Sequence record: OR846487.1
From: a phage
Strand: one strand, 5' to 3'
Length of the DNA stretch: 1,042 nucleotides
The translations under genes were made by a program, and so were the position numbers. How positions within the stretch are numbered: the stretch's first letter is position 1; each line of letters begins with the position of its first letter. Below the pieces are notes generated by a model. The model did no database searches. It was not told the origin of the DNA and saw only the letters and a program-made list of their open reading frames with translations. Positions 1-1,042 of the stretch are shown here, piece after piece.

Positions 1-1042
1 GCCAGATCAACAATACCGTCAGATTTACGCGGTTGGATCATGCCTTTCCAGTAAACGAAAGTCGGTACGCGAACGCCGCCTTCCCAGGTAGATCCTTTCG
101 CACCACGGAACGGTGTGCGTCCGTGCGGCGGTACTTCGGCTTCCGGTCCGTTATCGGAGGTAAAGACAATCAGCGTGTTATCAAGCTGACCGTTTTTCTC
201 CAGTGCTTTATACAGATTAGCGAACACATCGTTCATTTCCACCATGCAGTCGCCATACGAGGTGCGTGCCGGAGAGCTACCCGCATATTTGGCGTTCGGG
301 TAGTTATCGAAGTGACAGCCGCGAGTGCCGTAATAGAGGAAGAAAGGCTTATCACTCTTCGCCATCTTGTCGAGGAACTTAACGCCATATTCCATCCAGC
401 GTTGATCCAGATCTTCCATATATTTCGGCGTAATGTCGGCAATGGCCTGTTGTTCGCCGCCGCGCACCGCATGAACGTCATCTTTGCTAAATGGTAATTG
501 CTTGATGTATTCAGAACGGTCCGGACTCAGGGCCACTTCCGGATTGACGTGAACGTCGCGCCATTCGGTGTACATATCAGACACCGAGTTAAAGCCACGG
601 AAATCATCAAAGCCAACGTTCTGCGGCTGCGACTCTTTGTTTTCCCCCATATGCCATTTCCCGATGGCCTGAGTGACGTAGCCCTGATCGTGCAGCAACT
701 GCGGCAGCGTGGTTAACCCTTGCAGCCCGCCCGGTTGCCCGTACATTGGCGGCATCAGAATGCCGTGGTGGATGGAGTATTGTCCGGTGAGAATGGTGGC
801 GCGGGTTGGGGAAGAGCTTGGTTGAGAATACGCCGAAGTTAAAATCAGCCCCTGGCTGGCAACGGCGTCGATATCTGGTGTAGGGTTACCCACCGCCACG
901 CCGCCACCGTTAAAACCGACGTCCATCCAGCCCACATCGTCCAGCAAGAAAACAACCACATTCGGTTTCTTACCGGTTTTTTTCTCAAGTTCTGCCAGCT
1001 TCTGCTGGGGTTCTTTATCCTGCGCCGGATGCTGCATTACTG
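1..1042 (-). CDS. Sulfatase (arylsulfatase family, Ser-type formylglycine motif), partial at both ends; codons in frame from + 1040 down to + 3
   Basis: Reverse-complement translation is open across the whole window (345 codons, no stop): ...[47 protein letters not shown]...[20 protein letters not shown]...AIGKWHMGE...[17 protein letters not shown]...[11 protein letters not shown]...[23 protein letters not shown]...GIVDL. Sulfatase hallmarks are all present: metal-binding DD (FLLDD, + 936..941), signature [11 protein letters not shown] (+ 783..815), GKWH (+ 651..662), GCH, SDNG and GAKGS. Residue spacing matches the human ARSA active-site pattern (D29/D30, C69, R73, K123, H125, H229, D281/N282, K302). 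Family assignment rests on motif recognition from memory; no database search was run. E. coli YdeN is a possible identity but unverified. Confidence 0.93.

Follow-up and report, generated by a model that had tools for sequence, protein, structure and literature searches.

The locus analysed here raises the question of whether a single serine codon, standing at the head of a sulfatase signature, foretells a maturase gene that lies beyond the end of the available sequence. The original prediction was made for the window, that is, the whole stretch of DNA that was analysed (1,042 nucleotides), and held that a signature on its minus strand begins with Ser in place of Cys and that the sulfatase needs a radical-SAM maturase, usually encoded next to it. 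Only one frame is open over all 1,042 bases of the window; it lies on the minus strand and carries the signature. In nucleotide sequence, the window agrees fully (100%) with the aslA gene of E. coli O157 and its related strains, where the annotation reads "arylsulfatase AslA"; against K-12 derivatives the identity is 97.9%. Moreover, the Pfam Sulfatase model (PF00884) spans the translation of the window from end to end (223.1 bits, E 6.6e-66), and full-length AslA scores 241.5 bits against the same model (cut-off 25). The window is an internal stretch of the well-known, annotated aslA of E. coli, which runs beyond both window ends, its stop codon being located 436 nt past window position 1. 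Open reading frames on the plus strand, such as that at 33–497 (154 aa, TTG start), were rejected as antisense shadows of the aslA frame, it being the translation of the latter that matches Sulfatase throughout, and an Rfam scan of both strands of the window gave no RNA family at the gathering threshold. The features of the window are listed below, those of the active site with their counterparts in human arylsulfatase A (ARSA).

1–1042, minus strand: internal aslA coding sequence, residues 61–406 of the 551-aa AslA (open frame, nucleotide identity, locus map and Pfam).
936–941, minus strand: Asp94-Asp95, predicted metal ligands, equivalent to ARSA Asp29/Asp30 (alignment).
813–815, minus strand: codon TCT for Ser136, the predicted formylglycine precursor (Ser-type), aligned with residue 69 of human ARSA.
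783–815, minus strand: sulfatase signature (C/S)-x-P-x-R-x4-T-G, AslA residues 136–146 (translation).
801–803, minus strand: Arg140 of the signature, equivalent to ARSA Arg73 (alignment).
651–659, minus strand: Lys188-Trp-His190, equivalent to ARSA Lys123/His125 (alignment).
312–314, minus strand: His303, equivalent to ARSA His229 (alignment).
150–155, minus strand: Asp356-Asn357, predicted metal ligands, equivalent to ARSA Asp281/Asn282 (alignment).
96–98, minus strand: Lys375, equivalent to ARSA Lys302 (alignment).

The canonical sulfatase signature, for which we used the form (C/S)-x-(P/A)-x-R-x4-T-G, is located in the N-terminal third of AslA. Minus-strand translation of positions 783–815 (codons tct tcc cca acc cgc gcc acc att ctc acc gga) gave this signature with Ser as the first residue, reproducing exactly the motif and the codons that had been noted. 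Of 200,000 random versions of the 346-aa window translation, shuffled with the composition preserved, 109 contained the pattern [CS].[PA].R.{4}TG; because of this rarity and the place of the signature in the Sulfatase domain, a chance match is ruled out. The Ser also held at the level of the codon, which is TCT at 813–815, and Ser occupies the formylglycine position in the O157, K-12 (XL1-Blue), and Nord1 alleles of aslA, which share 98.7–99.3% amino acid identity. As TCT and TGT are one base apart, a Cys-type gene might be thought to lie behind the codon, altered by a sequencing error or inactivated by mutation in a particular strain. Nevertheless, the probability of this is practically negligible: the three divergent E. 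coli alleles all have Ser, as do all 28 other Ser-type species-level relatives described below, which use TCT, TCC, TCG, TCA, AGT, and AGC, and the reading frame of the window is open throughout. A sequencing slip at the Ser codon is refuted by these three alleles and 28 relatives with their six Ser codons.

In the alignment with human ARSA (chain 1e1z, a C69S mutant), the formylglycine position, residue 69, is matched by the first Ser of the signature. Nine further residues known to line the active site of ARSA, namely, D29, D30, R73, K123, H125, H229, D281, N282, and K302, are all identical in AslA and, according to the alignment, all lie within the window. This conservation of the formylglycine-site and metal-site residues argues against the view that Ser136 stays unconverted, serving as a plain serine nucleophile or standing in a protein with a non-catalytic role (an invasion or binding factor), so that no maturase would be needed. 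Such a view is encouraged by the designation of AslA as "arylsulfatase-like" and by the fact that aslA is known chiefly for the invasion phenotype reportedly described by Hoffman in 2000 in E. coli K1; the gene also serves as a "virulence marker" of E. coli strains that are invasive or associated with meningitis. Moreover, activity without an obvious maturase was seen for a Ser-type sulfatase of metagenomic origin that had been produced in E. coli (PMC8379841). The characterised S1 sulfatases have, however, all been reported to need formylglycine (PMC8484680), and we consider it very unlikely that Ser136 is left as it is translated.

The surroundings of the window were mapped on the O157 chromosome NZ_CP022050.2 (locus L001), which is identical to the window and served as the reference for the locus map. 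The gene order there is hemC-hemD-hemX-hemY > aslA > < aslB < tRNA-Pro/Leu/Leu/His/Arg < thrP. Outside the window, the N-terminus of AslA reads MEFSFSPKLLVVAVAAALPLMASA/ADTPS and, judged by inspection, resembles a Sec signal with an A-x-A site. Downstream of aslA, beyond window position 1, where the radical-SAM maturase had been placed by the original prediction, the next gene is indeed of this kind.

About −1838 to −603 in window-equivalent positions (L001 7646–8881), plus strand of the window: aslB (locus map).

The two genes lie on opposite strands, tail to tail, with a gap of 167 nt, and because they are convergent they are neighbours and not an operon. The protein expected at this place was one of about 380–400 aa with an N-terminal CxxxCxxC motif and a C-terminal SPASM Cys cluster. 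AslB consists of 411 aa and contains CNLNCDYC at residues 21–28 (C21-x3-C25-x2-C28) and further cysteines at 276, 282, 297, 339, 342, 348, 352, and 371, eight in all. In the profile searches suggested for the pair, in which AslA matched Sulfatase as given above, AslB matched Radical_SAM (PF04055, 66.5 bits) and SPASM (PF13186, 45 bits), as well as the SPASM model TIGR04085 (66.4 bits). With the NCBIfam model TIGR03942, "anaerobic sulfatase maturase" (sulfatase_rSAM; this class of enzymes is hereafter designated anSME), AslB scored 518.7 bits against a cut-off of 349.45, and with the narrower NF010308 it scored 467.9 bits, slightly under the cut-off of 484. The maturase gene foreseen from the Ser codon is thus present at the predicted side and has the predicted architecture. 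The aslA-aslB pair is already known, all E. coli genomes in RefSeq carrying its annotation.

Two observations on the neighbouring gene and the spacer may be added. AslB also gave high scores with models of RiPP maturases, namely, DynA (204 bits), DarW (154 bits), and GrrM/OscB (148 bits), all under their cut-offs, and these scores reflect the close kinship of anSMEs with peptide-modifying SPASM enzymes. The spacer between aslA and aslB (L001 7479–7645) contains REP-like palindromes (GCCGGATGCG...CGCATCCGGC) and differs in length by strain, being 167 nt in O157, 158 nt in K-12 XL1-Blue, and 101 nt in Nord1.

The dependence of the linked maturase on the signature residue was analyzed in 80 AslA-family loci (56–99% identity), one per species-level genome, each of which was scored for the residue opposite Ser136 in the alignment and for the genes lying up to 5 kb away. 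Ser was found in 29 loci (28 besides E. coli) and Cys in the other 51. An AslB-like anSME was encoded within 5 kb in 25 of the 29 Ser-type loci, mostly directly downstream and in convergent orientation, whereas it stood beside the sulfatase gene in 2 of the 51 Cys-type loci (L043, which has an FGE too, and L073). Thus, the claim that the maturase gene is usually found beside a Ser-type sulfatase gene proved correct in this family. With a search seed verified as PF03781 (284.7 bits), no FGE was detected within 5 kb in any of the 29 Ser-type loci; an adjacent FGE was present in 19 Cys-type loci, and neither an anSME nor an FGE lay within 5 kb in 31 of the 51. Fisher's exact test of Ser/Cys against an adjacent anSME gave p = 2e-14, a value in which independence is overstated, most of the Ser-type genes belonging to one clade. 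An independent Ser-type member (L084, 60% identity) is, however, nested among Cys-type genes, and it too is adjoined by an anSME.

Four Ser-type loci had no anSME. In two of them (L014 and L033) the contigs end at the sulfatase gene; the other two, from Mailhella (L026) and Thermoguttaceae (L032), have none within 5 kb and are genuine exceptions. When the two truncated contigs are excluded, Ser is accompanied by an adjacent anSME in 25 of 27 loci; in 49 of the 51 Cys-type loci, the sulfatase gene has either an FGE beside it or no maturase linked to it. So tight a linkage of Ser-type genes with anSMEs over the family would be hard to explain if the serine remained unmodified. The linkage of Ser with anSME and of Cys with FGE agrees with the established chemistry of these enzymes: FGE requires O2 and has Cys as its target residue, and anSMEs, which contain a CX3CX2C radical-SAM cluster and two SPASM clusters, oxidise either Cys or Ser in (C/S)X(P/A)XR (PMC7771511). 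A single codon predicts the type of maturase well within one sulfatase family, although the rule that pairs Ser-type sulfatases with anSMEs is textbook sulfatase biology and is of little matter as a discovery.

Two of the sequences collected for this comparison call for separate remarks. In one E. coli GenBank assembly (L005), the matches to AslB were fragmented over several frames at about 48% identity; they were rejected as evidence of a divergent maturase and assigned to assembly frameshift noise. The contig of L014 (CALXDF010000209.1, 3.7 kb), from a metagenome-assembled genome labelled "uncultured Oscillospiraceae", carries an aslA that is 99% identical to that of E. coli, and is most likely a binning contaminant.

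Within the Ser clade, the formylglycine codons are TCN in 22 cases and AGY in 7, and the only member with Cys (L025, TGC) has a TCT member and an AGT member as its sisters. This arrangement is consistent with Cys being a tolerated functional bridge between the two Ser codon families where a dual-substrate anSME is present. Ser-type AslA proteins with 74–77% amino acid identity to that of E. coli, together with a convergent anSME, were also seen in remote bacteria (L023 and L027–L033), which comprise Uliginosibacterium, Desulfovibrionaceae, Thermogutta/Thermoguttaceae, and "Deltaproteobacteria bacterium Smac51". Such a degree of identity in remote bacteria suggests that the aslA-aslB pair moved horizontally as a unit.

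From these findings we consider it probable, at roughly 0.8, that AslA is a secreted Ser-type S1 sulfatase, the predicted substrate of AslB, and that its catalytic core is encoded in the window. According to this model, the cytoplasmic radical-SAM/SPASM enzyme AslB would act on AslA prior to export, abstracting the C-beta hydrogen of Ser136 by means of a 5'-deoxyadenosyl radical derived from SAM, and oxidation of the side chain would thereby yield formylglycine, an aldehyde. In its hydrated form, this group would be held by a divalent metal bound to Asp94, Asp95, Asp356, and Asn357, would be flanked by Arg140, Lys188, His190, His303, and Lys375, and would attack sulfate esters in the periplasm. 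Adjacency and family membership point to AslB as the enzyme that modifies Ser136, in preference to YdeM or a different system; the residue is presumably converted in E. coli itself. In the literature, we found no direct demonstration of formylglycine in AslA or of its formation on AslA by AslB. As summarised in a passage of PMC11215262 citing Almeciga-Diaz 2017, overexpressed AslB raises the activity of recombinant human Cys-type sulfatases in E. coli.

The partnership of AslA and AslB was further analyzed by their distribution in E. coli. Among 5426 complete genomes, the window is present in 3697 and absent in 1729 (about 32%), and aslB (at least 80% coverage) is present in 5425. The genomes without the window, as sampled, share the same 1579-nt deletion, which corresponds to L001 5962–7540 and extends from nucleotide 140 of aslA to 62 nt past its stop codon, leaving a 138-nt annotated pseudogene (L002 1724–1861) and an intact aslB. 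Because aslB is kept where aslA has been deleted, AslB cannot exist solely for AslA. As a separate observation, both genes show unusual divergence for genes of the E. coli chromosome, with alleles down to about 93% nucleotide identity, and about one-third of the genomes fall in the band of 90–95% nucleotide identity to the O157 allele.

The retention of an intact aslB in these genomes also favours a different assignment, in which Ser136 is matured by another enzyme, either the paralogous anSME YdeM or a suspected third system of E. coli, and the main job of AslB lies elsewhere. Evidence for a third system was reportedly obtained with aslB and ydeM deletion mutants, as the title of a study by Benjdia (FEBS Letters, 2007) is said to indicate; that study reportedly concerned Cys-type sulfatases, which would tell against this assignment. 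AslB and YdeM have both been called "putative" anSMEs, with a third maturation system suspected (PMC8379841), and a single anSME serves many sulfatases, this class of enzymes being promiscuous (PMC7771511). In addition, an account of the acid-resistance network names H-NS, RcsB/GadE, HdfR, and AdiY as regulators of aslB and does not mention aslA (PMC2984483). On the other side, the convergent layout of sulfatase and anSME genes has been kept from Escherichia to Thermoguttaceae and Desulfovibrionaceae, at 74–77% AslA identity. Because the arrangement is conserved in such distant relatives, we argue that aslA and aslB form a functional pair, and it seems unlikely that Ser136 is entrusted to another maturase.

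The proposed maturation of AslA by AslB leaves room for a further task of the latter. The near-universal presence of aslB, the loss of aslA in about 32% of the genomes, and the GadE/H-NS acid-resistance regulon lead us to propose, tentatively and at less than even odds, that AslB has a second substrate or role independent of AslA. The target may be a further sulfatase, such as YdeN or YidJ, or else a protein or peptide that is not a sulfatase; the latter is suggested by the strong likeness of AslB to SPASM enzymes that modify RiPPs, DynA among them.

Among known systems, the hemY-aslA-aslB locus of E. coli, with its AslA and AslB, is the same locus as that of the window and shows no difference from it. 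The closest solved structure to AslA is that of PsFucS1 from Pseudoalteromonas sp. (PDB 7aj0; E 1.6e-100 over residues 52–544). PsFucS1 is like AslA in its fold and active-site residues but is a Cys-type enzyme, with Cys111 in the motif C-T-S-S-R. It is Ca2+-dependent and active on fucoidan, and provided the first structure of SulfAtlas subfamily S1_13 (PMC8484680); the sequence match to PsFucS1 would place AslA in the same subfamily. The Cys-type relatives of AslA with an FGE, such as those from Paraburkholderia, Bdellovibrio, and Caballeronia (L039 and L049–L060), are 56–70% identical to it and have the signature QPSCSPTRATIMTGQ, which is the same except for the first residue. They differ from the aslA locus in having Cys for Ser and, as the neighbour, the O2-dependent FGE (PF03781) in place of a radical-SAM enzyme. 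The AtsA/AtsB pair of Klebsiella pneumoniae, which is the reference for a Ser-type sulfatase with its radical-SAM maturase, resembles AslA/AslB in the Ser of S-x-P-x-R, in the maturase of radical-SAM/SPASM type encoded beside the sulfatase, and probably in export of the sulfatase. That AtsB acts on Ser has been demonstrated in vitro, whereas the evidence found for AslB is indirect (PMC11215262); atsB and atsA are co-transcribed in Klebsiella, whereas aslA and aslB are convergent. Three [4Fe-4S] clusters are a property of the AtsB family (PMC7771511), to which AslB is likened by its domains.
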